DNA of 64,000 nt, taken from an uncultured Actinomycetes bacterium (lineage in GTDB: Bacteria > Actinomycetota > Thermoleophilia > Gaiellales > Gaiellaceae). Of the stretch, positions 2,190 to 45,592 are shown piece after piece (within the stretch, counting starts at the first letter, position 1; every line of letters begins with the position of its first letter). The notes under the pieces were generated by a model. The model did no database searches, was not told the DNA's origin, and saw only the letters and a program-made list of their open reading frames with translations. Location of the stretch: the NCBI GenBank assembly GCA_963820725.1, contig CAWGAZ010000005.1:9241-73240 (forward strand). Reading direction: 5' to 3'. Both the position numbers and the translations under genes were made by a program.

Positions 2190-3410
2190 ATGAATGATTC
2201 GTTGATCCCGCCGTCGATCACGGGCAAGGGCTCGACCTTCCCGCCGGGCGGGAGCGTGCTCGACCACAAGTTCGGCGCGAGCGACCCTTACACGCTCGGG
2301 GTCGAGGAGGAGTACATGCTCCTCGACAGCGAGACCTTCGACCTCGTCCAGCACATCGACACCGTGCTCGCCGCCGTCGCAGGGCACGAGCTGGAGCCTC
2401 GCATCAACTCCGAGCTGATGCAGTCGGTGCTCGAGGTGGCCACGCCGGTCTGTCACACGCCGGCCGGCGTCCAGCAGCAGCTCCTCCGGATCCGCCGCTA
2501 CGTCACCGACATCGCGCGAGAGAAGGGCCTGCGCGTCGGCTCGGCCGGCACGCACCCGTTCTCGCTCTTCGAGACGCAGCGGATCACCGCGAAGGACCGC
2601 TATCGCGCCCTCGTCGACCAGATGCAGTACATCGCACGGCGGGAGCTCATCTTCGGCATGCACGTGCACGTCGCGGTCGACGACCCGGAGAAGGCGATCC
2701 AGGTCGTCAACGGCCTCATCGCCCATCTCCCCGAGCTCGTCGCGCTCTCGGCCAGCTCGCCGTTCTGGCGGGGCGAGCCGACCGGACTCCGCTCGTCGCG
2801 CCACATGGTGTTCGCCGCCTTCCCGCGCTCGGGACCCCCGCCGCGCTTCCGCGACTACGCCGACTACGCGCAGGTCGTGAACCAGCTCGAGAAGACCGGC
2901 TGCATCCAGGACTACACGCACATCTGGTGGGACATCCGGCTGCACCCGCGGTTGGGGACGATCGAGATCCGGATCTGCGATGCGGTAACGCGGCTCGAGG
3001 ACGTGATCGCGATCACCGCGTACTGCCAGGCGCTCGTCAAGCACTACGCGGGGCTCGTCGACCGCGGCGAGGAGATCCCGTCGTTCCACCGCATCCTCAC
3101 GACCGAGAACAAGTGGCTCGCCGCGCGGTACGGGCTCTCGGCGCCTGTGATGGACCTCCACACGGGTCGCCGCAACCGGCTGCCGGTGGCCGCGCTCGTC
3201 AGGCGGACGCTGCAGACACTGCGCCCGCATGCTCGCGATCTCGGCTCCGAGGACGAGCTCGCCGGCATCGAGGAGATCCTGCGCCGCGGGAACGGCGCCG
3301 ACCGGCAGCTCCACGTCTTCAACACGAACCGCGACATCGTCGAGGTGACGAAAGCGATCGCCGACGCGACGGAAGTCGCACCGGAGCCCGAGCCCGCGGC
3401 CGCTGCGTAG
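2190..3410 (+). CDS. carboxylate-amine ligase, glutamate-cysteine ligase family 2 (YbdK-like)
   Basis: 406-aa ORF with GCS2-type blocks TLGVEEEYMLLD, GTHPF, ELIFGMHVHVAV and WWDIRLHPRLGTIEIRICD. Confidence 0.85.
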   Translation: MNDSLIPPSITGKGSTFPPGGSVLDHKFGASDPYTLGVEEEYMLLDSETFDLVQHIDTVLAAVAGHELEPRINSELMQSVLEVATPVCHTPAGVQQQLLRIRRYVTDIAREKGLRVGSAGTHPFSLFETQRITAKDRYRALVDQMQYIARRELIFGMHVHVAVDDPEKAIQVVNGLIAHLPELVALSASSPFWRGEPTGLRSSRHMVFAAFPRSGPPPRFRDYADYAQVVNQLEKTGCIQDYTHIWWDIRLHPRLGTIEIRICDAVTRLEDVIAITAYCQALVKHYAGLVDRGEEIPSFHRILTTENKWLAARYGLSAPVMDLHTGRRNRLPVAALVRRTLQTLRPHARDLGSEDELAGIEEILRRGNGADRQLHVFNTNRDIVEVTKAIADATEVAPEPEPAAAA

Positions 3411-3420
3411 GATCGATTCG

Positions 3421-3882
3421 ATGCTGGAGGTCGGGGAGAAAGCGCCGCTCGACGCGGTCGTGTGGACGACGCCGCGCGAGCGTGCGAGCGTCGGCGACCT
3501 GATCCACGACCGGCCGTTGCTCCTCCTCTTTTACCTCTTCGACTGGTCCTCGACCTGAACGAACGAGCTCGAGCTCCTGCGTGACAGGAGAGCGGAGCTG
3601 CAGGAGGCCGGGGTCGAGCCGTTCGCGATCTCGCGTGACTCGCCATACACGCACGTCGCCTGGATGCAAGCACTCGATCTCGACTTCCCGCTCCTCTCCG
3701 ACTGGAACGCCGACGCGACCCACGGCTTCGGCGTCGCCTACGAGCACAACGGCATGCGCGACGTCTCGCGTCGCAGCGCGTTCCTCGTCGATGTTGAGGG
3801 CGTCGTGCGCGGTGCGTGGGCCTACGAACCGAGCGAGTTGCCGGACCTCGACGAGCTGATCGCAGCGGCCCACGACTTGTAG
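3421..3882 (+). CDS. BCP/AhpE-like peroxiredoxin with in-frame UGA (3556-3558) at the peroxidatic-Cys position; candidate selenoprotein (alternative: nonsense pseudogene)
   Basis: ATG 3421 ... LLLLFYLFDWSST-[TGA]-TNELELLRDRRAELQEAGVEPFAISRDSP...DFPLLSDWN...RRSAFLVDVEG... reads in one frame to TAG 3880-3882. It aligns by eye with the Bcp stretch [20 protein letters not shown]...GISTD...LLSD...R.SFLID. The ORF track shows only the last 72 aa (3664..3882). Confidence 0.6.
3566..3599 (+). promoter_or_regulatory. SECIS-like stem-loop downstream of UGA 3556-3558
   Basis: Lower stem AGCUC (3566-3570) / GAGCU (3595-3599), then an internal loop. Upper stem CUCCUG (3574-3579) / CAGGAG (3585-3590). Apical loop CGUGA, starting 21 nt after the UGA. 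Confidence 0.4.
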
Positions 3883-3912
3883 TCGTCCGCCCGATCGCGT
3901 TTACTCGCGCGC

Positions 3913-4503
3913 ATGGATACCCCGCACGCCACCGAGCCGCCTGCCGAGCGCGGGCTGCCCTCGGGACCAGTCACCGCCGCGGTCGGTCTCACGGTCGCGA
4001 TCGTCACCCTCATCTTCCTGTTCGAGTCGAACCTGGTTCCCTCGAACTGGTACGGGTTGTTCAAGGTCGTGCACGTGATCGGCGCCGTCGCGTGGGTCGG
4101 CGGTGGGCTGATCCTGACGATCCTTGCGATGCGGGCCGAGCGCTCGTCGGATCCCCGCGAGATGGCAACGATCGCGAGACAAGCTGCGTTTGCGGGCGAA
4201 CGGGTCTTCGCCCCCGTCGGCCTCCTCGTCTTCCTGATGGGGATCGCCATGGTGATCAACCTGCACCTGGGCTTCGGAACGTCGTGGATCGTCATCGGTC
4301 TCATCGGCTACGCGATCACGTTCTTGACCGGCCTCCTGGTGCTCGGGCCGCTGGCGAAGCGCATCGGGCAGCTGATCGAGACCAAAGGCCCGGAGGCGCC
4401 CGAGACGCAGGCGACCATCCAGCGCATCCTCCTGCTCGCGCGCGTCGACATTGGCGTGCTCCTGCTCGTAGTCGCCGACATGGTCTTGAAGCCGTTCACG
4501 TAA
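3913..4503 (+). CDS. integral membrane protein (about 4 TM helices), function unknown
   Basis: 196-aa ORF with hydrophobic spans VGLTVAIVTLIFLF, VIGAVAWVGGGLILTIL, VGLLVFLMGIAMVI/WIVIGLIGYAITFLTGLLVL and IGVLLLVVADMVL. TTTACT (3900-3905) lies 7 nt before ATG 3913. Confidence 0.7.
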   Translation: MDTPHATEPPAERGLPSGPVTAAVGLTVAIVTLIFLFESNLVPSNWYGLFKVVHVIGAVAWVGGGLILTILAMRAERSSDPREMATIARQAAFAGERVFAPVGLLVFLMGIAMVINLHLGFGTSWIVIGLIGYAITFLTGLLVLGPLAKRIGQLIETKGPEAPETQATIQRILLLARVDIGVLLLVVADMVLKPFT

Positions 4504-9307: not shown

Positions 9308-11950
9308 CTACCAACCCTTCGTGCGGTGCGCGTGTGGCCGCCCCGCCACGCGCACCCTGGCGTCGACCGCCAGACAGCGTTCGGGCAGTGCGAGCACGGG
9401 GTTCAGGTCGAGCTCGACCACCTCTGGCAGCTCGTCGACCAGCAGGGAGAGACGCAGGAGGAGGTCGACGAGCGCGCCCTCGTCGGAGGCCGGAGTTCCT
9501 CTGAAGCCGGCCACGAGGCGGCCGGCCTTGCCGGAGCGAACGAGCTCCTCCGCATCGCGGTCGGTGAGGGGCGCGAGCCGGAACTGCGCCTCTCCGATCA
9601 GCTCGGCGAGCACGCCGCCGGGACCGAAGGCGACGAGGGGGCCGAAGACGGGATCCTGGACGGCGCCGGCCAGCAGCTCGGCGCCGCCGCGCACGAAGGG
9701 CTGCACGAGCAACGGCCCGCCGATCTTCTCCGCTGCGGCGCGAACCGCGTCGTCGTCGCCGAGGTCGAGGATCACACCGCCCTCCTCGGTCTTGTGGGCT
9801 CCCGGCGCAGCCGTCTTGAGAACGACGGGATGACCGAGCTCGCGGGCCGCCTCGATGGCAGCGTCCGGAGTCTCGGCGAGGCGCTCGGGTACAAGCGGAA
9901 GCCGGTAGGCGTCGAGCAGGCTGCGCGTGCGATCCGGATCCAGCCAGCCGCCGCCGGCCGCGACTGCGTCTCGCACGACAGCCTTTGCTGCGTCGAGGTC
10001 GCACTCGAGCTCCGGTGCAGAACCGGCCGGTTGCCGGAGCCACTCGCCGCGCTCGGCCGCACGCCCCAACGCCCGCGCTGCAGCCTCCGGATAGTCGAAG
10101 GCCGGTACGTTCGCCGCACTGCGCAGGCTCGGCGGCCCCCCGTTCGCGCTGACGAAGACGCAGAGAACGGGCTTGTCGACGGCCGTCGACGCCGCGCGGC
10201 TGATCGCGGCCCCCACCTCGTCCTCGTTGGTCCCGACGGTCGGTACGAAGAGGACGATCGTGGCGTCGAAGGCGGGGTCGGCGAGAACGTGCGGCAATGC
10301 GGCGGCAAAGCTCGCGGCCGTCGCTCCGCCCAACAGGTCGATCGGGTTCGCGCTGCTCCCCTCGACCGGCATGACCTCGGCCAGCGCCGCGCGGGTCGCC
10401 TCGCTCGGCTGCGGCAGCTCGAGTCCGGCAGCCTCACACGCGTCTGCGGCGAGAATGCCGAGCCCGCCGGCGTTGGTCACGAGCGCGACGCGGCGCCCGC
10501 GCGGCACGGGCTGGGCGGTGAGGAGCGCGGCCACGTCGATCAGCTCGTCCAGCGTCCGCGCGCGAATCACGCCCGCCTGGTGGAAGAGCGCGTCGACGGC
10601 GACGTCCGATCCTGCGAGCGCAGCCGTGTGCGAGCCTGCGGCGCGACTGCCGGCGCGCGTGCTGCCGCCCTTCAAGGCGAGGATCGGCTTGCGTCGCGCC
10701 AGCCGTCGCGCGATGCGCGAGAAGGCTCGCGGGTTGCCGAACGACTCGAGGTAGAGGACGACCATCTCGGTCTCCTCGTCGTCCTCCCACCACTCGAGCA
10801 GGTCGTTCGAGGAGACGTCCGCCTTGTTGCCGACCGACACGAACGAGGTGACTCCGAGACCGGTCGCCTCGGCCCGCTCGAGCAGCGCGAGCCCGAGCGC
10901 GCCGCTCTGGGAGGAGAAGCCGATCTTGCCGGGCGGGAAGCTGCGCGGCGCGAAGGTCGCGTTGAGGTGAACCGACGACGAGGCGATGCCGAGGCAGTTG
11001 GGCCCGAGCAGGCGGGCTCCGTGCTCGCGGACGAGCGCGAGCAGCCGCTCCTGCCGCTCGGCGCCCTCGCTGCCCGTCTCCGCAAAGCCGGCGGAGATGA
11101 CGACGAGGGCGCGAACGCCGGCGGCGAGCGCATCCTCTGCGGCCGGGAGCACCTGCTCGCCGGGCACGCAGATCACCGCCAGGTCCACCGTTTCCGCGAT
11201 CTCCGCGACGCCGCTATAGCCGTGGACGCCGGCGACGGAGTCGGCCTTTCGGTTCACCGGGTAGACCGAGCCCGCGAAGTCGCCGGCGAGGATGTTGCGG
11301 AAGAGCTCTCCGCCGATCGAGCCGCGCCGCTTCGACGCTCCGACGACCGCGACCGAACCCGGACGGAAGAACGGCTCGAGCGAGGCGCGCACGGCGACGT
11401 GGTCGCGGGCGGCGACCTGTTCGCGGTAGCCGCTCGTCGCCGCGATCGGGAACCGGATCTCGAGCTCGCCACCCTCGCCGGCGCGTGTCACCGTGAACCC
11501 GGCGTCGCGAAACACCCTGAGCATCGCGTTGTTCTCGTGCAGCACCTCGGCGACGAACTCCTCGATCCCGGCCGCCGCAGCCCTGGCCGCGAGCTGCTCG
11601 AGCAGGCGCGTCCCGACCCCGCGCCCCTGATACCCGTCGGCCACGGCGAAGGCAACCTCGGCGGCGCGCGGATCGCGCAGCCGGACCCAGTTCGCAACGG
11701 CCACCGTGCGGCCGTCGAGCGACGCGAGCAACGCGCCGCGCTCCTGCCAATCGGGGGCGAGCACCGGCTCGACGAGCTTCGGGCCAAGGGCGGGGAAGCC
11801 GTGGAAGCGGAGGTAGCGGCTGTGCTCCGAAAGGTCGGAGAAGAACTCGATCAGCGCCTCGGCATCCTCCACGGCGGGCGCCCTCAGCCGGAGCGTCGAC
11901 CCGTCGCGGAGGATGACGTCGGTCGCGTCGACCTCGGTGGCGGCGGTCAC
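9308..11950 (-). CDS. protein acetyltransferase-like fusion: N-terminal GNAT + NDP-forming acyl-CoA synthetase (CoA-binding, ligase-CoA, ATP-grasp)
   Basis: GNAT block ...VAFAVADGYQGRGVGTRLLEQL..., then SVAVVGASKRRGSIGGELFRNI (CoA-binding), ...LLGPNCLGI..., and a C-terminal ATP-grasp. GTG 11950 overlaps the USP stop (GTGA). The first 78 codons of ORF-track 9308..12184 overlap the USP gene and are rejected. Confidence 0.85.
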   Translation of the reverse strand: MTAATEVDATDVILRDGSTLRLRAPAVEDAEALIEFFSDLSEHSRYLRFHGFPALGPKLVEPVLAPDWQERGALLASLDGRTVAVANWVRLRDPRAAEVAFAVADGYQGRGVGTRLLEQLAARAAAAGIEEFVAEVLHENNAMLRVFRDAGFTVTRAGEGGELEIRFPIAATSGYREQVAARDHVAVRASLEPFFRPGSVAVVGASKRRGSIGGELFRNILAGDFAGSVYPVNRKADSVAGVHGYSGVAEIAETVDLAVICVPGEQVLPAAEDALAAGVRALVVISAGFAETGSEGAERQERLLALVREHGARLLGPNCLGIASSSVHLNATFAPRSFPPGKIGFSSQSGALGLALLERAEATGLGVTSFVSVGNKADVSSNDLLEWWEDDEETEMVVLYLESFGNPRAFSRIARRLARRKPILALKGGSTRAGSRAAGSHTAALAGSDVAVDALFHQAGVIRARTLDELIDVAALLTAQPVPRGRRVALVTNAGGLGILAADACEAAGLELPQPSEATRAALAEVMPVEGSSANPIDLLGGATAASFAAALPHVLADPAFDATIVLFVPTVGTNEDEVGAAISRAASTAVDKPVLCVFVSANGGPPSLRSAANVPAFDYPEAAARALGRAAERGEWLRQPAGSAPELECDLDAAKAVVRDAVAAGGGWLDPDRTRSLLDAYRLPLVPERLAETPDAAIEAARELGHPVVLKTAAPGAHKTEEGGVILDLGDDDAVRAAAEKIGGPLLVQPFVRGGAELLAGAVQDPVFGPLVAFGPGGVLAELIGEAQFRLAPLTDRDAEELVRSGKAGRLVAGFRGTPASDEGALVDLLLRLSLLVDELPEVVELDLNPVLALPERCLAVDARVRVAGRPHAHRTKGW

Positions 11951-12444
11951 GCGACCGCCACGACCTCGTGCGACTGCTGCCCGCGCGTCGGCAGCCCGCG
12001 GCCGCGGACGACGAGGACCGGGCACGGCGCCGTGTGAACGAGCCGGGTCGAGACACTCCCGGAGAGGAAGCGATGGGTGGCGCCCCAGCCGTGCGAGCCC
12101 ACGACGATCAGCTGCGCATCGCGCTCGCCTGCGATCCGGCAGATCTCCTCGACTGTGAACCCCTCGGCGAGAACGGTCGAGCACGGCACGTCGGCTGCGC
12201 GCGCGGCTGCGTCGACGCTCGCCAGGAGCTTCTGCACGCGACCGCGCTCGACCTTGGTGAGCTCTGCGACGACGTTCGAGTAGCCATAGCCGGCGTAGCC
12301 GACCGCAGGCACCGCCACATGCGCGACGGAGACGACGAGCAGCGGCGCGTCGAGCCTCAGTGCCAGTTCGAACGCCTCGTTCTGCGCCTCCAGCGCCGAG
12401 GGCGAGCCGTCCGTTGCGAACAGGATCGGTCTCCGATCGCTCAT
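11947..12444 (-). CDS. universal stress protein (UspA family)
   Basis: MSDRRPILFATDGSPSALEA...LIVVGSHGWGATHRFLSGSVSTRLVHTAPCPVLVV carries the USP ATP-binding motif G-x2-G-x9-G-S. AAGGAGG Shine-Dalgarno before ATG 12444. Confidence 0.85.
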   Translation of the reverse strand: MSDRRPILFATDGSPSALEAQNEAFELALRLDAPLLVVSVAHVAVPAVGYAGYGYSNVVAELTKVERGRVQKLLASVDAAARAADVPCSTVLAEGFTVEEICRIAGERDAQLIVVGSHGWGATHRFLSGSVSTRLVHTAPCPVLVVRGRGLPTRGQQSHEVVAVA

Positions 12445-19640: not shown

Positions 19641-20561
19641 ATCGACGTCCTGGTTGTCAACGCGGGCTCCACGAGCCTCAAGCTTCACCTCGTCGCCGGG
19701 AACGAATCCCGGCAGGTGGACGAGTTCGTCGCGGCGGACGCGGTCGGCCACCGCGTCGTCCACGGCGGGCGCCGCTTCGTCGGCCCGACGCTCGTGGACG
19801 GCGCGGTAGAGCAGGCGATCGAGGAGCTCTCGGTGCTCGCGCCGCTCCACAACCGGCGCGCGCTCGAGGAGATCCGCCGGGCACGCGAGGCGCTGCCGGA
19901 CCTGCCGCACGTGGCCGTCTTCGACACCGCCTTCCACCGCACGCTGCCGGCGGCTGCCTCGACCTACGCGATCCCTGGGCGGTGGCGCGACGAGTGGGAG
20001 GTGCACCGCTACGGCTTCCACGGGATCTCCGTACAGTGGGTCGCCTCGCAGCTGGCAGTCGAGCGCCTGGTCGTCTGCCACCTCGGCGGCGGCTGCTCGG
20101 TGACGGCGGTGCGGGACGGACGTTCCGTGGACACGACGATGGGATTCTCACCGCTCGAGGGGGTTCCGATGGCCACCAGGTCCGGCTCCGTCGATCCCGC
20201 CGCGCTTCTCTATCTGCTGCGCGAGCGGCTGCTGACGGAGGCGGAGCTCTCGCAAGCGCTCGAGCACGAGTCCGGGCTGGCCGGACTCTCGGGCGGCGGG
20301 TCGGGAGACGTGCGGGAGGCCTCGGCGCTCGCCCTCGACGTCTTCGTCCACCGTGTCGCGGCCGCCGTGGGGGCGATGGCGACGGCCTGCGGGGGGATCG
20401 ACGTCCTCGCCTTCACCGGCGGGGTCGGCGAGCACGCCGACGGTGTGAGGGAGCGAATCGTCGAGCGCGTCCGCTTCCTCGGCGACTTCCAAGTCCAGGT
20501 CGTCGAGTCGCGGGAAGAGCGCGTGATCGCAGCAGAGACCCGCCGCCTGCTCGAAGCCTGA
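19641..20561 (+). CDS. ackA: acetate kinase (compact form), start codon unresolved
   Basis: [15 protein letters not shown]...HRVVHGG...APLHNRRAL...VAVFDTAFH...YGFHGIS...[10 protein letters not shown]...GFSPLEG..MATRSG..DP...FTGGVGEH. There is no ATG/GTG/TTG in frame at or upstream of the conserved VVNAGS motif. ATC 19641 is the nearest AUH codon. Confidence 0.75.
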
Positions 20562-20572
20562 GACCCGCTCGC

Positions 20573-21046
20573 TCAGGCCGAGGCGAAGGTCTCGCGGGGC
20601 CCGAGGCCGGCCGCGATCGCGCGGGCGATGTCGAGGGTGGAGATGACGCCAATTGGCCGGTGAGAGCCCGGGTCGGTCACCGCCAGATGCGCGATCCCGT
20701 ACTGGGCCATCAGGCTGCCGGCCTCGGCGATCGAGCTGTCGGCCGGGACGCTGACCAGCGGAGTCACCGCGGTCCCTCCGGCGGTCAGGGAATCGAGGTC
20801 GAGCTGGGTGGCGGCGACGAGATCCAGGTCGGAGACGACGGCCCAGAGCCGCGGCTCCTCACCGGGTTCGTCCGCGTGCTCGAACACGAAGACCGCGTGT
20901 ACGCCGAACGTCGCCATCATCCGCGCCACGACCCGGAGCGGCGTCTCGGGCGGGCAGCTGATGACACCGCGGCTCATGGCGTCTGCGACGGTCGCCGCCT
21001 CGAAGGCGACGGGCAGCTCCTCGCGGCGTTGTTCTGCGTACAGCAT
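20573..21046 (-). CDS. CBS-pair domain protein
   Basis: 157 aa with two CBS motifs (VADAMSRGVISCPPETPLRVVARMMATFGVHAVFV... and ...VTPLVSVPADSSIAEAGSLMAQYGIAHLAVTD...GVISTLDI). Confidence 0.85.
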   Translation of the reverse strand: MLYAEQRREELPVAFEAATVADAMSRGVISCPPETPLRVVARMMATFGVHAVFVFEHADEPGEEPRLWAVVSDLDLVAATQLDLDSLTAGGTAVTPLVSVPADSSIAEAGSLMAQYGIAHLAVTDPGSHRPIGVISTLDIARAIAAGLGPRETFASA

Positions 21047-21105
21047 GGGCGGATCGTCGCCGCGCGCCGCCGAAGCCGCATCCGGGTGAACTACGGAACC
21101 GGGGC

Positions 21106-21303
21106 CTAGCTGAGTCCGGCGTTCCTGCGGTCCGTGAACCAGCCCCAGATGAGCGCCAGCAAAGCGAGCACCAGGAACGCGGCGAGGAAGCCCCAGGCGT
21201 AGATCGCCTTGAGGAAGATGAACATCACGATGAAGAGCACAATCGCGCCGGCGACGAAGAGGCCCGCCATCTTGAACCAGAATTTCGCTCCACCTTCGTC
21301 CAT
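21106..21303 (-). CDS. small membrane protein (65 aa, 2 TM)
   Basis: MDEGGAKFWFKMAGLFVAGAIVLFIVMFIFLKAIYAWGFLAAFLVLALLALIWGWFTDRRNAGLS. Phe/Ile/Trp-rich, which is atypical for GC-driven shadow ORFs. Confidence 0.5.
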   Translation of the reverse strand: MDEGGAKFWFKMAGLFVAGAIVLFIVMFIFLKAIYAWGFLAAFLVLALLALIWGWFTDRRNAGLS

Positions 21304-21353: not shown

Positions 21354-22094
21354 ATGATCCGGTCCACGGCGCGGAGCCGTGTCGACGGTGCGATAATCGG
21401 CGCTGGCGTGTCCGCTCAGCAGCCGCCTGCACCTGCTACCCCGGCGTCGTTTCGCCGACTGCGGTGGTTTGTCCTGGGAGGGGCCCTCGTCGTCGGGGTG
21501 GGCCTCGGGGCAGCGATCGCCGTTCTCCGACCTTCGAACACCAGTCCGGTCGTGGCGAGCTCGGCTGTGTCCGGTCCGCCGGTGACCTGGCCGGTCGGGA
21601 GGAAGCTCGCACCAGCGTTCACCTTGCGGAGCGAGAGCGGCGCTCCGATCTCGCTGAAGCAATTCCGCGGCCGCCCGGTGATCGTGACCTTCATCGATCC
21701 GCTCTGCCGGAACTTCTGCCCGCTCGAGGCGAAGACGCTCGACCGTGTAGTCGCCGGGATGCCTGCCTCGCAGCGGCCCGCGATCGTCGCCGTGAGCACC
21801 AACCGCTGGGCTGATGCTCGCGCGAACCTCTTGCTCGACAAGACCAAGTGGAGTTTGCCGAGTGACTGGCACTGGGCCGTGGGGGCACCCGCAGCGCTCG
21901 CCCGCGTGTGGAAGGACTACGCGATCGGAGTCAGCGTCGCGACGAGGACGATCGCCGGGATCAAGGTGCACCGGATCACCCACACGGAGGCGGCCTACGT
22001 GGTCGATCCGAGCGGCCACGAACGCGCGCTCTACCTGTATCCCTTCCGCGCGCAGGACGTCGAAGGCACCCTTCGATCGCTCGCACGTGCGTAA
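21354..22094 (+). CDS. SCO1/SenC-family thioredoxin-fold copper chaperone
   Basis: N-terminal TM (WFVLGGALVVGVGLGAAIAVL), then FTLRSESGAPISLKQFRGRPVIVTFIDPLCRNFCP (C-x3-C) and ...ITHTEAAYVVDPSG (conserved His). Confidence 0.8.
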   Translation: MIRSTARSRVDGAIIGAGVSAQQPPAPATPASFRRLRWFVLGGALVVGVGLGAAIAVLRPSNTSPVVASSAVSGPPVTWPVGRKLAPAFTLRSESGAPISLKQFRGRPVIVTFIDPLCRNFCPLEAKTLDRVVAGMPASQRPAIVAVSTNRWADARANLLLDKTKWSLPSDWHWAVGAPAALARVWKDYAIGVSVATRTIAGIKVHRITHTEAAYVVDPSGHERALYLYPFRAQDVEGTLRSLARA

Positions 22095-23082
22095 GGCCGC
22101 GCTCGCACTGACGACCGCCCTCCTTGCAGCCGCCCTGGTTCCGTCGGCCGCGTCCGCTCACGTCGGCCGGGTCCCGCCGGCGGCAACCGACTATCTCGCG
22201 CGCGTCTCATCGATTCCCCCAGGCCTCACCGCCCGGGTGGTCGACGGCGACCAGGCGATCTGGATGCGCGTGAAGCCGTCCCTGACCGTCGTGGTCACCG
22301 GTCTCCGCGGAGAGCGGTACCTGCGCTTCTCACCGTCCGGCGTCGCCGTCAACACGCGGTCTGCGACCTGGTTCCTCAACCGCGTGCGTCCCGAGGTCGT
22401 CCCGCGAGGGCTCACAGCGAGCACGCCGGCGAACTGGAAGCTGCTCACCTCGCACCACTCGTGGATGTGGCACGACGGCCGTCTGCATGCAGCCGCTCTC
22501 TCGGCGCATCCGGCCGGGAACGTCTTCGTGGGCCGCTGGACGGTCCCGATCGTGGTGGACGGCCGAGGCACGTCGATCCGAGGTGGTCTCTGGCAGTCGG
22601 CGCACGCTTCGCTCCTCTGGTTCTGGCCGCTGCTCGTGGCTGCTGCGTGCATCCCCGCGCTGCTGAAGCTACGAGAAGCGCGGCTCGAGGCTCAGGTCAG
22701 CGCGATACTTGCCGCCGTTGCGCTGGTCTCCGCGACGACCGCCCGCCTCGGTCGTGAGCTCTACGGACGGCCGACGGTCTCGTCCTGGCAGCTCGTGCTC
22801 GTGGGCTCCACCTGTCTGATTGCCATCGGTCTGGCCGCTCTCTATAGCCGCCCGACCTGGCGCGCGCTGGGCGGAATCGCGATCGGGATCGCTGCGGCCG
22901 CCCAGGGGCTCGAGCTCGTCTCGACGCTGCGTGACGGCTGGGTTCTGGCTGTGGTTCCCGCCTGGCTCGAGCGAAGCGCAGCGGGGATCTCACTCGCGTC
23001 GGGTGTCGCGCTGGTTCTGATGTCGCTCACCCTCGGAATCGGCGACCGCACCGGGGAGCCCGAGCCGCTAGCGCAGCGCTGA
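22087..23082 (+). CDS. exported/membrane protein with predicted mature N-terminal His and a C-terminal multi-TM region, function unknown
   Basis: GTG 22087 overlaps the SCO1 stop. Signal peptide VRKAALALTTALLAAALVPSAASA|HVGRVPP... About 150 aa soluble domain, then 4-5 TM helices (LLWFWPLLVAAACIPALL, ILAAVALVSATTA, LVLVGSTCLIAIGLAALY, ...). Confidence 0.6.
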   Translation: MRKAALALTTALLAAALVPSAASAHVGRVPPAATDYLARVSSIPPGLTARVVDGDQAIWMRVKPSLTVVVTGLRGERYLRFSPSGVAVNTRSATWFLNRVRPEVVPRGLTASTPANWKLLTSHHSWMWHDGRLHAAALSAHPAGNVFVGRWTVPIVVDGRGTSIRGGLWQSAHASLLWFWPLLVAAACIPALLKLREARLEAQVSAILAAVALVSATTARLGRELYGRPTVSSWQLVLVGSTCLIAIGLAALYSRPTWRALGGIAIGIAAAAQGLELVSTLRDGWVLAVVPAWLERSAAGISLASGVALVLMSLTLGIGDRTGEPEPLAQR

Positions 23083-23757
23083 GCGGGCCGCACGGCGCCT
23101 GACCACGAAGAGCGCCGCAACACCCAGCAGGATCGCTGCGACGACGGCGACGATGATCTCGGCCCGACTCGTGCCGCCGCTCGGCTGATTCGCAAACCCG
23201 GGGCCTCCGCTCGTCGACGCCTTCACGCCTGACGCTGCGGCGAGCTTGACCACTGCCTTCGTCGCCGCGGTCGCCAGGCCCTCCGGAGTCGGGTCGACCT
23301 TTATCCCGGCAATTGCCCGGTAGCCGGCGGCCGGGTTGTGCTTCCACTGCGCGAAGCCGAGGCCCTGCGGCATCACCACGAGAAGCCGGGTCGTGGTCTT
23401 GAAGCGACCTCCCGAACAAGAGCCACCCCACCAGCACTTCGAGTCTTCGATATCGAGAAACTTCGCGTACCCTCGCGGCTCGCCGAAGAGTCCCGCGAGA
23501 GAGCCCAGGTCGTAGCTGCTCCAGATCAGGGCGACCTTGATCGGGAACCCTTGCTTGTTGGCCGAAGCGACCGCGGCGATGAGCTCTCGCTGCTGTGCGG
23601 GCGGGATCTTGGCGTCGTATGAGAGGAAGACCGGCTGCGAGACGAGGTAGTCGCTCGCCGGGTCGCCGTCCGCCCTCGCGAGCGGCGCCGCGATCCCGGC
23701 GAGGAGAGCGCAGAGGACGAGACAGATGCCGACGCGCGTAGCCTGCTGCCGATGTAT
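23068..23757 (-). CDS. exported protein with C-terminal TM anchor, function unknown; start codon unresolved (ATA 23757 or ATC 23727)
   Basis: ...RVGICLVLCALLAGIAAPLARA|DGDPASDYLVSQPVFLSYDAKIPPAQQRELIAAVASANKQGFPIKVALIWSSYDLG...EIIVAVVAAILLGVAALFVV. No canonical start lies near the signal peptide. The Arg-rich upstream 170 codons of ORF-track 23068..24288 are rejected. Confidence 0.55.
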   Translation of the reverse strand: MHRQQATRVGICLVLCALLAGIAAPLARADGDPASDYLVSQPVFLSYDAKIPPAQQRELIAAVASANKQGFPIKVALIWSSYDLGSLAGLFGEPRGYAKFLDIEDSKCWWGGSCSGGRFKTTTRLLVVMPQGLGFAQWKHNPAAGYRAIAGIKVDPTPEGLATAATKAVVKLAAASGVKASTSGGPGFANQPSGGTSRAEIIVAVVAAILLGVAALFVVRRRAARSALR

Positions 23758-24273
23758 CTGCGTCCCCTTGCGCTCGCGGCGGTCGTTGCCGTCTCGGGAC
23801 CCGTGCCGACGCCGGTGGGAAGCGGCCCCCGCTACCAGCCGCCTGCGAGATCGCCGGCCGCACGATTCGCCTGCCGCCCGGCGCCGCTCGATGCGGGTCC
23901 GCGTGTTCACGTCGAGTTGTTCGCTCGGCGGCGTGTCGTGATCGTCCCGGCTGCGATTGGGCTCGAGCGGGCGCATCTCCGGCTGGGCCGCGTGGTCCGC
24001 GCGGGCTGTCGCGGTCGCGTGTGGACACTCGATCCGAGTGGGATCGTCGACTACGAGGGCGCCTCGACTCTCGGTCGCCTCTTCCGCGCCTGGGGCCAGC
24101 CACTCGGCATGCGTCGTCTCGTGTCGTTTCGCGGCCTCGTTTCGGTCTACGTCAATGGGAGCCAGCGTCGGGGCGACCCGCGCAAGCTGCGGCTCCGGCC
24201 CGGTGCGGAGATCGTGCTCGAGGTCGGCGGCTACGTCCCACCCCATCGCAGCTTCCTCTTCCCGCCTCGCTGA
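23752..24273 (+). CDS. hypothetical exported protein (single N-terminal hydrophobic segment)
   Basis: MYLRPLALAAVVAV...HVELFARRRVVIVPAAIGLE...AGCRGRVWTLDPSGIVDYEGASTLGRLFRAWGQPLG...VSVYVNG...LRPGAEIVLEVGG. TAGCCT (23739-23744) lies 7 nt before the ATG. It resembles small actinobacterial proteins seen near metal/thiol clusters, from unverified recollection. Confidence 0.55.
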   Translation: MYLRPLALAAVVAVSGPVPTPVGSGPRYQPPARSPAARFACRPAPLDAGPRVHVELFARRRVVIVPAAIGLERAHLRLGRVVRAGCRGRVWTLDPSGIVDYEGASTLGRLFRAWGQPLGMRRLVSFRGLVSVYVNGSQRRGDPRKLRLRPGAEIVLEVGGYVPPHRSFLFPPR

Positions 24274-24284
24274 CCGCGGCCGCA

Positions 24285-24404
24285 TCATCCGCCTCCCAGC
24301 ACCGTGCGCAGCACATCGATCGCGACGACAGCGGCCGCGATGCCGCAGCCGAGGGCGACGAGGGCGGCAAGGAGGACGAGCGGAGCGGGCGCGGTGCGGT
24401 TCAC
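24285..24404 (-). CDS. possible 39-aa single-TM mini-protein coupled to the lipoprotein gene
   Basis: GTG 24404 overlaps the lipoprotein stop TGA 24403-24401 (GTGA). Sequence VNRTAPAPLVLLAALVALGCGIAAAVVAIDVLRTVLGGG. Ala/Leu/Val/Gly richness could also be GC-driven chance. Confidence 0.3.
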   Translation of the reverse strand: MNRTAPAPLVLLAALVALGCGIAAAVVAIDVLRTVLGGG

Positions 24405-25267
24405 GTCACGTGGAGGGTGAAGGGCGCGGTGACCACGTGTCCGTGCTGGTAGGTCAGCAGGAACATGCGCCAGTTTCCGGCCTCGGGGAGGAGCACGCCG
24501 ATTTTGAGTATGCCCGGAGCGGCCGAATGGCCCGTCACGCGCACGTTGCCGAGCGCCGAGAAGCAGTAGACGGCACCCGGTTTGCAGACATGAGTGTGCG
24601 AGTAGGCGAGCGAGCCCTGGTGGAAGAAGATCGCGTGCGCGAGCGCCCCGCGCCAGGTCGTGAAGTTCACCTTGTGTCCCGCCGGGTCGGTGACGCGAAC
24701 GACGAAGAAGGTCGGCTGGATCGCTTTCAGATGCGGGTGCCCCTGAACGGTGAAGTGGTAGCCGTCGACGACCTCGGTCGACCGGTAGGAAGGAAGCGGC
24801 TTCGGGTGGTAGTTGCCGCGCACGGTCACCCATTTGAAGAGCTGAAAGTTGAACGGGGTCGTCGGCCCGGTCACCTTCGGATAGGCGTCGACGACGATCC
24901 GATAGCGGCCGGGGGTCGGGAACGTGACGGGCACGCTGACCCGCCCATCGGCCTCTGCGTCGGCGTCGATGTACTGGACATGGCTGTCGTCGCTGCGGAC
25001 GACGATCAGATCGACTCCCGCGTGCGGGTCGCAACACTTCTTGTACCGGGTCAGCGTCTTGCCCGAAGGAGTCCGGATGGCAAAGGAGACGACGGTCCGC
25101 CGTCCCGGCATCACCGGAGCACCGGGCTTGAACCGGGTCAGCCCGAAGATGTGAGCGGGTAGGACCGTCGGGCCGGTGCTCTGTGCACCGGAGCCCCCGC
25201 CACAGCCCGCGACCACGGCAACGGCTAGGAGCGAGGCGAGGGCGATGAGCGAGCGATGGTGCGACAT
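24401..25267 (-). CDS. His/Cys-rich lipoprotein, putative metal-binding, function unknown
   Basis: MSHHRSLIALASLLAVAVVAGC|GGGS (lipobox). KKCCDPHAGVDLIVV, HPHLKA, GALAHAIFFH, YSHTHVCKPGAVYC, GHSAAPG, YQHGH. GGAAGGAG Shine-Dalgarno before ATG 25267. Confidence 0.7.
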   Translation of the reverse strand: MSHHRSLIALASLLAVAVVAGCGGGSGAQSTGPTVLPAHIFGLTRFKPGAPVMPGRRTVVSFAIRTPSGKTLTRYKKCCDPHAGVDLIVVRSDDSHVQYIDADAEADGRVSVPVTFPTPGRYRIVVDAYPKVTGPTTPFNFQLFKWVTVRGNYHPKPLPSYRSTEVVDGYHFTVQGHPHLKAIQPTFFVVRVTDPAGHKVNFTTWRGALAHAIFFHQGSLAYSHTHVCKPGAVYCFSALGNVRVTGHSAAPGILKIGVLLPEAGNWRMFLLTYQHGHVVTAPFTLHVT

Positions 25268-25305
25268 TCGTCGGAATCTCCTTCCGCTTCTTCGGATGGG
25301 CGTCC

Positions 25306-27024
25306 TCAGCCGCCGGCGCGGTCGACGACAAGGGTGGTGAACGGCTGGCCGCCTTTCGGCGTGATCGTGTAGTCGAGGCCCCAGTGGCCGACCATGACGA
25401 GCGCCGGAGCCTTGCGTGTGTAGACGCCGGGAGCGGTCTCGGCGAGCTGGTACTCCTGGCTCGGCATCTGCATGTCGAGCATCGCGAACGTGAGCGTCAC
25501 GTCCGCGCCCCTCACGGGCTTGCCGCCGCGGGTGAGCCGAAGGCCGAAGGTATCCGGCGCCGCCGCCCGGTTGGGATCGACCAGGACCTGGAGCTCGTAC
25601 GGCCCTCGGACGACGGTCTGGGCGACCTTGCCGGGGCCGACGCGCGCGATCGCCGAACCCTCCTCGGCGAACGCCGGCGGCGGCGGCGCGACACTCGACA
25701 GCACGGCCGCCGCGAGAATCGCCCCGGCCACGAGCACCGCCTCGACCGAGACGAGCGCCCGCAGCAGGCGGGCCGAAGCCTCGCTCACCTCGGGCCGCGA
25801 GAGGCCAGGCTTGTTCTTGAGGAGGTTGACCGAGGCGAGCAGCATCGCGGCCAGCAGGATCCCCGCCTTGATCAGGATCACCTTCCCGTACGTCGTGAGC
25901 CAGAGCGCGTCGAGCACAGGGAGATGGAGGACAGAAGCCCCGACGCCCGTGGCGAGCAGGACGAGGACCGAAACGAGGGCCACGTTCGAGAAACGCGGCA
26001 CGCAGACGGCGAGACCGGCCACCCGTTTCGCGGCCGGCAAGCTGGCCCAGACGACGAGCAACCCGATCAAGCCTCCGATCCAGAGCGAGCCGGAGACGAG
26101 GTGGAGCCAGTCGAGCAGGACGGCCACGCCACGCGGTGCCGTCTGTCCGGCATGGCCGACGGCGCCGGGAAGAACGGGGACAGCCGCCGCCGCCGCGAAC
26201 GCACCGCTGAGCGCGAGCAGCCCCGCGACCGAGCGGCCCTCGCGCTCGGGTCGGTCGGTCCAGATCGCGACCGTCGCAGCGAGCACGAAGAGCGCAAAGC
26301 ACAGCTCGACGTCGACGTAGCCGCGGCCGAAGGCGGTGAGCCGCCAGAGCGGCACGACGGACGTCACGCTCCAGAAGGAGTGAAGCGAGTCGATCGCGAC
26401 CGCCTGCTCGAGGTAGGCCGGAATCGCGACCAAGCCGACCGCCGCGACGACCGCAAACGCGATCGTCAACGGACGCAGACTCGTGCCGGTCACGCGACGG
26501 ACGAGCGGGCGGGCGATGGCGATCCTCAGCACGAACAGACCGATCGCGGTCATCACTGTCAGGAAGGCGAGCCACTTTGCGATCACGAGCGGCGTCGACG
26601 TCGCCGTCCCCGCGATGTGCGGGACCCTGAACTGCGGCGTCGGCCCGGCGTTCGGCCCGACGGCGAACGTGAACGCCCCCTGCACCGGATGGCCGTCGAC
26701 CGAGATCGCGCGCCAGTAGACGAGATACCAGCCCTGACCGACGTGCTTGATCGGGACGACGAGCGTGTCCGGATCGGACGGCGAGCGCGTCACCGGACCG
26801 GTCACCTCCTGGTGTGCGTCGACGTCGGTGACCGAGATGATCGCGAACCGCGGCTCGACCGCCTCGTCGTACGTGAGCTGCACGGTGCGGGGTGCAGTGT
26901 TCAGGATCACGCTCGCGGCCGGAACCGTCTTGATCAAGTAGGCGTGGGCGGACGCCGCCGCCGGCACCAGCAACGCCAGCGCGACGACGGCGACCGCAAC
27001 GGCTCCACGCCTGCGCGGTCTCAC
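25306..27024 (-). CDS. CopC-CopD fusion copper-resistance/transport protein with C-terminal YtkA/FixH-like domain (YcnJ-like)
   Basis: Signal peptide ...LLVPAAASA|HAYLIKTVPAASVIL...VSVDGHPVQGAFTFAV (CopC), then about 8 TM helices (CopD), then a soluble tail ...VRGADVTLTFAMLDMQMP...GHWGLDYTI. GTG 27024 overlaps the ycnI stop (GTGA). Confidence 0.85.
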   Translation of the reverse strand: MRPRRRGAVAVAVVALALLVPAAASAHAYLIKTVPAASVILNTAPRTVQLTYDEAVEPRFAIISVTDVDAHQEVTGPVTRSPSDPDTLVVPIKHVGQGWYLVYWRAISVDGHPVQGAFTFAVGPNAGPTPQFRVPHIAGTATSTPLVIAKWLAFLTVMTAIGLFVLRIAIARPLVRRVTGTSLRPLTIAFAVVAAVGLVAIPAYLEQAVAIDSLHSFWSVTSVVPLWRLTAFGRGYVDVELCFALFVLAATVAIWTDRPEREGRSVAGLLALSGAFAAAAAVPVLPGAVGHAGQTAPRGVAVLLDWLHLVSGSLWIGGLIGLLVVWASLPAAKRVAGLAVCVPRFSNVALVSVLVLLATGVGASVLHLPVLDALWLTTYGKVILIKAGILLAAMLLASVNLLKNKPGLSRPEVSEASARLLRALVSVEAVLVAGAILAAAVLSSVAPPPPAFAEEGSAIARVGPGKVAQTVVRGPYELQVLVDPNRAAAPDTFGLRLTRGGKPVRGADVTLTFAMLDMQMPSQEYQLAETAPGVYTRKAPALVMVGHWGLDYTITPKGGQPFTTLVVDRAGG

Positions 27025-27605
27025 GTGAGCGAACGGCCCCCACGCGAGAACAGCGCGATGCCTCCGACAAGGAGGCCGAGCCCGCCGAGGATGAGGGCGA
27101 CGATCGTCAGCGTCGACGTGCCGCCGCCCGAGACGGAACTCACGACGTCGATCGTCGGCGCCGGCGCGGCCGACGACTCCGGACCCGACCAGTCCACGAT
27201 CGACCCGTCCGAGTAGGTCTGCTGCACGTGGAACGTGTACGTCCCCGCCGCGGACGGCTGGGCGAGGAACTGGAACAGCGAGTCGTCCTCCGTCGGAACA
27301 TGGCCGCCGGACCACGTGACCTGCGTGACGACCGCGTTCTCCCCGGACCCGGTGGATTGCTCCGCGCGCTTCCAGCCGGGGCTCGGCACGAACGAGTCGA
27401 TCGAGAACCCTTTCGGCAGGGTTAGGACGATCTTCGTCGTGAACGCGTTCGCCTTCTCCGTCGGAATCGCGAGGCTGTAGAGCTGCAGCTCGTCGGCCAG
27501 CGACACCGACGGGCTCATGCGGGCATGCGCGGACGCGCTCGCAACGACAACCATCCCGACCGCGACCGCGCCCATGAGCACCGCCAAGCGGCTCGTACGC
27601 TTCAT
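27021..27605 (-). CDS. ycnI: YcnI-family (DUF1775) copper-binding protein with C-terminal TM anchor
   Basis: MKRTSRLAVLMGAVAVGMVVVASASA|HARMSP...YSLAIPTEK...VTWSGG...FLAQPSAAGTYTFHVQQTYSDGSIVDW... Confidence 0.85.
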   Translation of the reverse strand: MKRTSRLAVLMGAVAVGMVVVASASAHARMSPSVSLADELQLYSLAIPTEKANAFTTKIVLTLPKGFSIDSFVPSPGWKRAEQSTGSGENAVVTQVTWSGGHVPTEDDSLFQFLAQPSAAGTYTFHVQQTYSDGSIVDWSGPESSAAPAPTIDVVSSVSGGGTSTLTIVALILGGLGLLVGGIALFSRGGRSLT

Positions 27606-27653
27606 TCCTCTCTCCTTCCTCGACAGGGCCCGCCGCCCACCGGCGGCGGCTCG

Positions 27654-28244
27654 TCAGCCGGCGAGAAGAGGAGGTCCGCGCCGTCCCAGCCGGCGCGAGA
27701 GCAGCGAGGAGAGGGGCGGCAGCGGCTGCGCCGCCGGGATGAGCAACGGGCAGAGCGCCGGACCCAACCGTGGCGGACGAACGCGAGCAAGGCGGCGCCC
27801 GAGGCGCCTCGCCGTGCGCAGCAGGACCCGCACCACGACGAACGCAAGCGCACCGAACGGCAGCTGAAGCGCGATCCCGATCAGAAACGTCGGCTCGAGC
27901 GCTGCAGCCCACGGGAAAGAGCCCCAGGCGAGCCAGCGCTCGATGTACTCCTGAAGGCCGAACCCGACGACCGGCAAGAGCGCGAACGCCCACGGCGGAA
28001 GGGAACGAACACCACGCCCGCGGGCCGCATCGACGAGGCTCGCCGCCAGCGAGAGTACGACTACTGCTCCGGCGACACCGAGAGCCAGCGGCAGCGCGCT
28101 CAGGTAGCCGTGACCGGTCTCGACGAGGTCGTGCAGCCGGACGCCGGCCTGCGGATAGACGATCCGGTAGGCAAGCATGTGCGCGACCTGTGATCCCGCG
28201 AGCATCAGCGGGACGGCTACGAGCCACGCAAGGCCTCGGCGCAT
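27654..28244 (-). CDS. integral membrane protein, function unknown (first gene of the ycnI-copCD operon)
   Basis: 196-aa ORF with 4 hydrophobic spans (LAWLVAVPLMLAGSQVAHML, ALPLALGVAGAVVVLSLAASL, WAFALLPVVGFGLQ, FLIGIALQLPFGALAFVVVRVLL). Same strand, 48 nt upstream of ycnI. Confidence 0.55.
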   Translation of the reverse strand: MRRGLAWLVAVPLMLAGSQVAHMLAYRIVYPQAGVRLHDLVETGHGYLSALPLALGVAGAVVVLSLAASLVDAARGRGVRSLPPWAFALLPVVGFGLQEYIERWLAWGSFPWAAALEPTFLIGIALQLPFGALAFVVVRVLLRTARRLGRRLARVRPPRLGPALCPLLIPAAQPLPPLSSLLSRRLGRRGPPLLAG

Positions 28245-45000: not shown

Positions 45001-45592
45001 ACGCGGTGTTGACGAGATCGCCGGCGACCATTCCCTCACCGACTGCAGCGGTATTGACCGCCGCCTCACCTGTCAACACTCCGGCGCGTGCCCGCAAGCC
45101 GTCGACACCGGCCTCCTGTCCCAGCGCCTGCACCGCCGCGACCAGATCGAGCGCTGTGCGAACGGCCCGCTCGGCGTCGTCCTCCGTCGCGACCGGCGTG
45201 CCCCAGACGGCCATAACCGCGTCCCCGATGAACTTCTCCACGACGCCGCCGTAAAGCTCGACGAGCCGCCGGCAGGTGTCGAAGTAGCGCGAGAGGAGTT
45301 CCCGCACCTCCTCCGGGTCACGTCCCTCCGAAAGCGTCGTGAAGCCGACGAGGTCGGCGAAAAGGACCGAGACGAGCCGCCGTTCGGCGACCACCGGCTC
45401 CGCTGTGGGCGTCGGAGCCACCGCCGGCGCCGCCACGAGGGCTGTCCCACAGTCGCCGCAGAAGCTCTCGTCGGGCTCGTACGGCGCGCCACAGGAGGGG
45501 CAGGCGAGCTCGACCGCGAGGGATTGGCCGCAGCCCACGCAGAACTTGCGACCCTCGCGGTTCTCGCGTCCGCAGGAAGCGCAGAGAACCAT
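42065..45592 (-). CDS. multidomain signalling protein: double zinc-ribbon + class III adenylate/guanylate cyclase + AAA/STAND ATPase + TPR repeats
   Basis: [22 protein letters not shown]...[19 protein letters not shown]; [15 protein letters not shown]...[14 protein letters not shown]...GEAAVN (cyclase); [14 protein letters not shown] (Walker A); long C-terminal helical TPR-like region. 1175 aa. Confidence 0.85.

Follow-up and report, generated by a model that had tools for sequence, protein, structure and literature searches.

The question raised by this locus is whether a TGA codon within a peroxiredoxin-like reading frame ends translation there, or is read as selenocysteine (Sec). The frame lies on the forward strand at 3421-3882 of the stretch of DNA analyzed here (64 kb from a Gaiellaceae bacterium, called the window throughout, and the source of all coordinates unless a locus is named). 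It runs from ATG 3421 to TAG 3880-3882 as a single frame of 153 codons, and its sole internal stop is TGA 3556-3558. A preliminary description of the window had proposed that this frame encodes, along its full length, a peroxiredoxin (Prx) of the BCP/AhpE type, with the TGA at the place of the peroxidatic Cys and a selenocysteine insertion sequence (SECIS)-like hairpin behind it. The translation quoted there was recovered exactly, and the list of open reading frames (ORFs) does hold, as it had remarked, just a 72-residue C-terminal ORF at 3664-3882. Comparison with related genomes supported the Sec proposal itself, through TGA conservation in 79 of 80 genomes, RNA-level selection on the hairpin and relaxation of that selection in Cys forms. 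We therefore consider, with a probability of about 0.9, that 3421-3882 is a genuine selenoprotein gene encoding a Sec-peroxiredoxin of a soil bacterium of the Gaiellaceae (Thermoleophilia, Actinomycetota).

When Cys was substituted for the stop, the product matched Pfam AhpC-TSA (PF00578) with E = 2.8e-22 and 79.4 bits (cutoff 26) over residues 5-130, spanning positions 2-122 of the 124 in the profile, and Pfam Redoxin was matched as well. The best solved-structure match was Bcp of Aeropyrum pernix (2cx3), which aligned from end to end (E = 2.2e-18) and placed the TGA on its peroxidatic Cys (FSPVCTKEL against WSST-TGA-TNEL), so that the proposed position of the TGA was upheld and the protein can be called BCP/AhpE-like. 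This alignment and the orthologues described below put the presumed Sec (U46, encoded at 3556-3558) at the peroxidatic position of an S43-S-T-U46 active site, in which the (T/S)xxC/U motif is present. Arg118, which aligned with the Arg of 2cx3, was invariant in 80 sequences (alignment column 125). Any Cys at all was missing from 76 of the 81 Sec forms, and the remaining five had one each, at five different positions. The complete gene is thus predicted, from its single frame, its Pfam match and its orthologues, to encode a 153-residue 1-Sec peroxiredoxin of the AhpC/TSA fold without a conserved resolving Cys. With no second Cys conserved, reduction of the selenenic acid would have to come from an external thiol.

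For comparison, we scanned GTDB species, each represented by one genome, and obtained 80 loci in metagenome-assembled genomes (MAGs) assigned to Gaiellaceae, Thermoleophilia or Actinomycetota, which came from at least six independent projects, both short- and long-read. The catalytic codon was TGA in 79 of the 80 species genomes and TGC in one (L063); a JGI contig (L083) likewise had TGA at this codon. Every TGA gene contained exactly one internal stop, and no second stop or frameshift was seen anywhere. The mean ratio of non-synonymous to synonymous differences (pN/pS) was 0.45 in the 50 codons preceding the TGA and 0.33 in the 93 codons following the hairpin, and since both values are below 0.5, both halves of the gene are translated and constrained. 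The closest protein relatives (80–96% identity) were all C-terminal fragments of 89-107 residues, and every one of the best 120 database proteins was a shortened call of this kind. Full-length homologues, with identities of at most 73%, had Cys at the catalytic position, and Cys also occupied the catalytic column of 60 further database homologues. In a neighbor-joining tree, of low resolution given the ~150 residues available, an all-Cys outgroup of 45 sequences separated from a clade of interleaved Sec and Cys forms. This suggests a Cys-to-Sec origin of the clade, probably followed by several reversions.

The immediate surroundings of the UGA were fixed as well (window 3553-3561; alignment A1 columns 4-12). 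The Thr codon preceding it was ACC in 78/78 sequences, although ACG prevails in the other Thr columns, and the base following it was always A. Of the three distinct Cys forms, two also had ACC at this place. The fixed ACC and A may represent a context effect on UGA decoding.

Downstream of the UGA, minimum free energy (MFE) folding recovered a hairpin at 3566-3599 (+; -16.8 kcal/mol), made up of a lower stem, an internal loop and an upper stem-loop, with the coordinates, loop sequence and distance that the preliminary description had given. The lower stem (AGCUC 3566-3570 / GAGCU 3595-3599) begins 7 nucleotides (nt) past the UGA. The upper part is a 17-nt mini-hairpin at 3574-3590 (+), which, from its conservation and its agreement with published criteria, is the presumed SelB-binding site. 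In it, CUCCUG 3574-3579 pairs with CAGGAG 3585-3590 over 6 bp, and the loop CGUGA (3580-3584) carries G-U at positions 2-3. The consensus for bacterial SECIS (bSECIS) elements (PMC13188914, Fig. 2) has an apical loop of 3-9 nt, where we observed 5 nt, an upper stem of 4-16 bp (6 bp here) and a distance from UGA to loop of 16-37 nt (21 nt here). It also has a G at loop position 1 or 2, with G or U usually next (here G at position 2, then U), and an MFE of -7.5 kcal/mol or lower (-16.8 for the whole hairpin, -7.4 for the 6-bp stem alone). The hairpin agrees with this published consensus, as the preliminary description had proposed from its geometry.

Across the 80 sequences, alignment columns 23-36 (AGCTCCTGCGTGAC) were invariant, and so was the loop. 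The upper stem could pair in 80/80, the sole changes being six from U-A to U-G, by which pairing is kept; the lower stem paired in most, though not all, orthologues (75–100% per pair). TGA-containing orthologues without a conserved downstream structure had been named as an observation that would refute the proposal, and the structure proved to be conserved. The seven codons GAG CTC CTG CGT GAC AGG AGA showed zero synonymous variation. Six-fold-degenerate (Leu, Arg) columns were invariant in 5/5 cases inside the hairpin against 0/30 elsewhere in the gene (Fisher exact ~3e-6), and the Arg codons fixed in the hairpin, CGT, AGG and AGA, make up 4.5%, 3.0% and 2.1% of the Arg codons elsewhere in the gene. 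The proportion of synonymous differences (pS) was 0.126 in codons 54-67 and 0.37-0.38 in the flanks, a threefold drop. The hairpin is under selection at the RNA level, beyond what the protein requires.

A control was provided by orthologues that encode Cys. P0004, P0005 and P0008 (loci L084-L088) have TGC at the catalytic codon, and they are positional orthologues, with a gene order in common with the window: thioredoxin, cNMP-binding, beta-lactamase, RidA, GCS2 and Prx, with DUF2269 next in L085. This pairing of Sec genes with Cys genes at the same position was, like the gene architecture and the conservation of UGA and hairpin, observed directly. In all three distinct Cys sequences CGC replaced CGT, giving a loop CGCGA instead of CGUGA, and two of the three had stem mismatches. 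The 50 nt following TGC in L086, L087 and L088 retained an intact 7-bp stem (GCUCCUG/CAGGAGC) around the loop CGCGA. The L086 stem looks like a putative fossil SECIS, left after a switch from Sec to Cys, as previously described for FdhA and HesB (PMC1794560). The loop U was the only feature that tracked TGA perfectly, and together with the G before it, it corresponds to the G[G|U] determinant in the bSECIS consensus. The Cys orthologues relax constraint at exactly the hairpin sites. Together, the Sec genes and their Cys-coding positional orthologues show what becomes of a SECIS when Sec is exchanged for Cys, the loop U being lost first and the stem decaying later.

A number of observations weigh against the interpretation of 3421-3882 as a selenoprotein gene. 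The Pro of the PxxxTxxC motif is not matched, as Leu39 stands at that position, -7 (FYLFDWSSTU); this Leu is also found in close Cys orthologues, and Pro in the more distant Cys homologue P0020. The hairpin alone, in one sequence of 70% GC, is weak evidence and indistinguishable from background. Its single-sequence fold had a z-score of -1.47, with 18/200 shuffles folding equally well, and ~12% of the TGA triplets in the window precede some stem-loop that passes a simplified bSECIS filter. This filter asks for 6 bp or more of stem without interruption and leaves the 3574-3590 hairpin itself unflagged, its 6-bp stem alone reaching -7.4 kcal/mol. Because the hairpin of a single sequence is weak evidence, the verdict rests on the comparison with related genomes. 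Covariation in the stem, which had been proposed as a check, was not significant in the 80 sequences by RNAalifold and pair counting, and the two double changes seen were equalled by shuffled controls, so that the structure is backed by conservation and wobble-compatible changes only. There was no Rfam match to the hairpin, none being found in the window at gathering thresholds, and a permissive Rfam scan of 3400-3900 returned two noise matches only (Xoo5 and mir-9437).

Further points, on both sides of the balance, concern the Sec machinery; its absence from the whole genome had been named as another refuting observation, on which they bear indirectly. The 64-kb window contained no tRNA genes and no homologue of SelA, SelB or SelD (tblastn with E. 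coli SelA, SelB and SelD; ARAGORN), and the flanks of the 80 loci, taken to 3 kb on either side, contained no selA, selB, selD or tRNA-Sec, the single tRNA being a tRNA-Arg in L036. A metagenome collection was also searched with the pyridoxal phosphate-lysine motif of SelA (GDKLLGGPQ), back-translated with a GC bias. This search returned 120 loci, and in several of them selA, selB and tRNA-Sec were clustered at ~70% GC. In L177, SelA scored 529 bits on TIGR00474 (cutoff 268) and SelB 369 bits on TIGR00475 (cutoff 242), whilst tRNA-Sec (RF01852) was detected at 63-70 bits (cutoff 47) in L177, L121, L209, L210 and L212. Tetranucleotide correlation with the window was 0.986-0.993 for L209, L212, L098, L177, L121 and L155; the comparison sets gave 0.972-0.992 (median 0.986) for known Gaiellaceae Prx loci and a median of 0.943 for all high-GC SelA loci. 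Close relatives of the L177 SelA (89–100% identity) lay on Mb-scale MAG contigs of 2.99 Mb and 1.34 Mb, and the nearest named relative came from an Actinomycetota MAG (TML14006.1, 93% identity). The assignment of these selA-selB-tRNA-Sec contigs to the Gaiellaceae is a putative one, made on composition and one phylum-level name only, and selD was not found on the best-matching of them. By blastn, the SelA loci had no shared region with the Prx loci or the window, and none of the Prx loci had a whole-genome shotgun prefix of the NCBI SelA contigs (WNGO01 and JBKPQP01). Among the loci compared, no single genome was found to carry both the TGA-containing Prx gene and the Sec machinery. A functional UGA that is kept across 79 species without a decoding system would be hard to explain.

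Some features of the sel clusters themselves were recorded. In the Actinomycetota clusters an O-methyltransferase-like gene (PF08100 Dimerisation and PF00891 Methyltransf_2; 316 residues) lies between selA and selB, at 10851-11798 (-) in L177, 9296-10246 in L210 and 3458-4408 in L212. Its overlap is 4 nt with selA and 4-10 nt with selB, and L209 (9296-9811) has kept just a 171-residue remnant of it. It is unusual for a sel operon to contain a methyltransferase. In L209-L212, selA always came after a Peptidase_M50 gene and a LOG-family gene (PF03641), and the database protein P0130 (662 residues) is apparently a call of a LOG-SelA fusion.

Sec insertion has to be weighed against other ways of explaining an in-frame UGA. 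The codon might be read through by a near-cognate tRNA with another residue (Trp, Cys or Arg), the hairpin serving as a general stimulator of read-through or pausing. Such recoding would suit a gene that was not found in one genome with the Sec machinery and a stem without covariation, and it draws on the fact that a need for decoding follows from conservation of UGA and hairpin, whereas the identity of the inserted residue does not. We consider it improbable all the same, as the UGA falls exactly on the residue where exchange between Sec and Cys is the rule in the family, and as the enzyme would be inactive with Trp or Arg in the peroxidatic place. A need for Cys could be served by TGC, a single mutation away, which related lineages do use. 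The loop G-U and the 21-nt spacing agree with the SelB-type SECIS consensus, loss of the loop U is specific to the Cys forms, and selA, selB and tRNA-Sec occur on contigs of matching composition. Even less probable, in our judgment, is a split or shortened gene, in which translation stops at the UGA to give a 45-residue N-terminal peptide, a separately initiated C-terminal fragment, or both. Public annotations do give C-terminal ORFs of 72-107 residues only. However, there is no conserved in-frame start past the TGA (the first in the window is ATG 3664, 35 codons on), the starts chosen by gene callers vary by genome over this same range of 72-107 residues, and each fragment would be without the catalytic residue. 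Purifying selection acts on the first 45 codons, whose start is conserved 9-10 nt past the GCS2 gene, and a split gene would further require that the stop had fallen on exactly the catalytic codon in 79 species.

The alternative named in the preliminary description, a pseudogene arising from a TGC-to-TGA nonsense mutation, needs a single transversion, and the orthologue L063 has TGC. Neither this nor a sequencing or assembly error survives the comparison: the TGA is shared by 79/80 species genomes from short- and long-read projects, there is no second stop, frameshift or other lesion, pN/pS is below 0.5 on both sides and synonymous sites in the hairpin are conserved. Both readings were excluded on these grounds. 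We give equally little credence to a genome-wide reassignment of UGA to Trp or Gly, as in genetic codes 4 or 25, which is the reading implied by nine full-length JGI gene calls with Trp at the catalytic codon (P0001, P0007, P0015, P0017, P0028, P0031, P0035, P0091 and P0103). TGA ends at least eight Pfam-confirmed genes of the window at the expected protein length (thioredoxin, ArsR, BNR protein, Alr, MMPL, GlmM-like, IMPDH and GNAT), and 3556 is the only place within the 64 kb where coding-like segments join in frame across a TGA, a scan of the window for other genes with in-frame TGA having found none. With TGA as the normal stop elsewhere in the window and a single read-through candidate, reassignment is refuted, and Trp at the peroxidatic site would again inactivate the enzyme. 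In P0001 (locus L083, gene 20-553), the sole one of these calls examined at the DNA level, the codon is TGA and the stored protein is not reproduced under table 11. The Trp calls are best explained as an annotation artefact. Some of the other Trp forms are 58–67% identical to the window protein and retain the hairpin peptide ELLRDR; if these also have TGA, the Sec form reaches beyond the 80 loci.

The Prx gene has a close upstream partner, which had been pointed out as a thiol/redox context. A gene for a YbdK/GCS2-family carboxylate-amine (glutamate-cysteine-type) ligase lies at 2190-3410 (+; PF04107, 2.6e-61; NCBIfam NF010039, 400 bits with a cutoff of 371) and does end 10 nt before the Prx ATG, as had been noted. 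The gap between the two was at most 13 nt in 76 of the 79 loci with both gene ends placeable, and 9-10 nt in 56/79, and the ATG/GTG start of the Prx gene was conserved. A putative Shine-Dalgarno-like AGGA, read from the sequence at 3409-3412 (+), lies 8 nt before the ATG and overlaps the GCS2 stop codon. The ligase and Prx genes are predicted to be translationally coupled, as an operon-like pair. What stands of the proposed context is this conserved pairing; as a pointer to Sec it falls away, since the pairing is common to the Cys-form loci and is thus a property of the Prx, uninformative on Sec. The downstream neighbor encodes a DUF2269 integral membrane protein (3913-4503, +; PF10027, 1.1e-17), which was directly downstream in 51/86 loci and so is frequent, though not universal. 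Three genes upstream of the Prx gene is a thioredoxin gene (1-288, +; PF00085, 7.3e-28), with its 5' end cut at the window edge, and a thioredoxin gene was found at the equivalent position in L084-L087.

For the selenoprotein gene at 3421-3882, we infer Sec insertion, SelB binding and the nature of the reductant largely by analogy with the canonical bacterial pathway. A ribosome arriving at UGA 3556-3558 would meet the stem-loop 3574-3590, which begins 15 nt downstream and displays the loop C-G-U-G-A. The stem-loop would recruit SelB·GTP·Sec-tRNA(Sec), so that Sec is inserted instead of termination by RF2. Translation would then melt the hairpin and read it as E-L-L-R-D-R-R, the stretch past the active site. 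The product would be a 153-residue peroxiredoxin with peroxidatic U46 in S43-x-x-U46 and the invariant Arg118. Reaction with peroxide would leave a selenenic acid on U46, to be reduced by an external thiol, for which either the thioredoxin from the gene three places upstream or a gamma-glutamyl thiol of low molecular weight, made by the GCS2 ligase, is a candidate. With the latter, the pair would form a dedicated two-gene system, in which a gamma-glutamyl thiol made by the GCS2/YbdK ligase directly reduces the selenenic acid of a 1-Sec peroxiredoxin that has no resolving Cys. This idea is speculative and, on present evidence, unlikely. The conserved ligase-Prx pairing (a gap of at most 13 nt in 76/79 loci) and the lack of a conserved second Cys speak for it, and the equal occurrence of the pairing in Cys forms and the thioredoxin gene nearby speak against it. 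If true, this would be a Prx-fold, selenium-dependent peroxidase that works like glutathione peroxidase, and its hosts would be aerobic Actinomycetota that abound in soil and lack glutathione.

Public records give this gene as a 'redoxin domain-containing protein' fragment of 72-107 residues or translate its UGA as Trp. For example, the NCBI third-party annotation proteins HEU5477264.1, HXR10734.1, HET8895462.1 and HVH50582.1 (P0085, P0282, P0300 and P0330), all from Gaiellaceae MAGs, comprise the C-terminal 104-107 residues only. The gene is newly recognized and has been systematically mis-annotated, yet it is of a well-known sort and no surprise to a specialist. Gaiellaceae are among the common Actinomycetota of soils. 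The corrected annotation would add a selenoprotein, and by implication the trait of Sec decoding, to this widespread, mostly uncultured soil lineage, and it matters for estimating how much selenium soil microbes require. The value of the finding lies in the correction of annotation, in a clean comparative data set on Sec and Cys forms, and in the speculative ligase-coupled 1-Sec peroxidase system; it leaves the understanding of Sec decoding and of peroxiredoxins unaltered.

Several other genes of the window were also recorded. A 973-residue ORF at 25306-28227 (-) contains CopC, CopD and YtkA-like domains behind an N-terminal portion of ~420 residues without a Pfam match, which suggests a copper-resistance fusion. 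At 9308-12184 (-), a protein of 958 residues, in which a GNAT acetyltransferase is joined to CoA-binding, succinyl-CoA-ligase-like and ATP-grasp domains, is similar to Pat-type protein acetyltransferases or ADP-forming acyl-CoA synthetases. A 1175-residue signaling protein at 42065-45592 (-) combines double zinc ribbons, an adenylate/guanylate cyclase domain, AAA_16 and TPR repeats. Between 19982 and 25331 there are four long ORFs without a Pfam match at 1e-5 (19982-21109, +; 21814-23082, +; 23068-24288, -; 24285-25331, -); none of them passed a filter on GC content at third codon positions, and their true frames are uncertain. The ORF at 61701-63176 (-) has two rhodanese domains, which suggests a sulfurtransferase. 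Rhodaneses are common and can handle selenium besides sulfur.

Sec-peroxiredoxins are an established and abundant family, known since 2001-2005; the preliminary description had already named them as a known bacterial selenoprotein family. In genomes available in 2006, 12 Sec-Prx genes and five Cys-to-Sec events were described under a T/SxxU/C definition (PMC1794560), a literature count for the Sargasso Sea gives 43 genes, and BSepDB lists 57,630 bacterial selenoproteins. A search of the literature, which did not cover catalogues such as BSepDB, found no text on Sec use in Gaiellaceae or Thermoleophilia. The Gaiellaceae form is like the Sec-Prx family (TxxU; COG1225 / PF00578; Zhang, Gladyshev) in its AhpC/TSA fold, in Sec replacing the peroxidatic Cys of (T/S)xxU, in its widespread Cys homologues with repeated switches between Cys and Sec, and in a bSECIS-type hairpin immediately downstream. 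It differs in belonging to a soil Actinomycetota clade, in having SxxU with Leu for the motif Pro, in having no second Cys, and in the conserved operon-like pair that its gene forms with that of a GCS2 ligase. Among Sec-peroxiredoxins, PrxU of Eubacterium acidaminophilum has been verified by experiment (Söhling 2001, as cited in PMC13188914). The window protein shares with PrxU the UGA-encoded Sec at the peroxidatic position but is no orthologue of it, as it scored 43.4 bits on the NCBIfam PrxU equivalog (NF040737, peroxi_PrxU; cutoff 270). The PrxU model has 233 positions and PrxU is thioredoxin-dependent, whereas the Gaiellaceae protein has 153 residues and no resolving Cys.

The window protein, at most a candidate member of the BCP/PrxQ subfamily (COG1225), fell under every NCBIfam equivalog cutoff, that for Bcp included (PRK09437; 45.5 bits, cutoff 140), yet its three best PDB matches were archaeal Bcp proteins: Bcp of Aeropyrum pernix (2cx3), and Bcp4 (3hjp) and Bcp1 (2ywn) of Sulfolobus. 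These matches covered the full length (E = 2e-18 to 1e-14), with similar size, the S-x-x-C motif and the conserved Arg, but the Bcp enzymes use Cys. AhpE of Mycobacterium tuberculosis (Rv2238c; 1xxu, 1xvw) is likewise an Actinomycetota protein of 153 residues with one redox-active residue and no resolving Cys. Its alignment with the window protein (E = 5e-12) is limited to residues 30-142, and AhpE uses Cys. AhpE is reduced by an external mycothiol/mycoredoxin system, and we know of no pairing of AhpE with GCS2. For the decoding signal, the comparison is with fdhF of Escherichia coli, where a 17-nt apical mini-hairpin with G-U in its loop is the SelB-binding determinant and starts 11 nt past the UGA. 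In both systems the stem-loop follows the UGA directly, within the coding sequence, and has at its apex a 17-nt mini-hairpin with G-U in the loop. Their sequences are unrelated; the Gaiellaceae upper stem has no bulged U, and its mini-hairpin begins 15 nt past the UGA.

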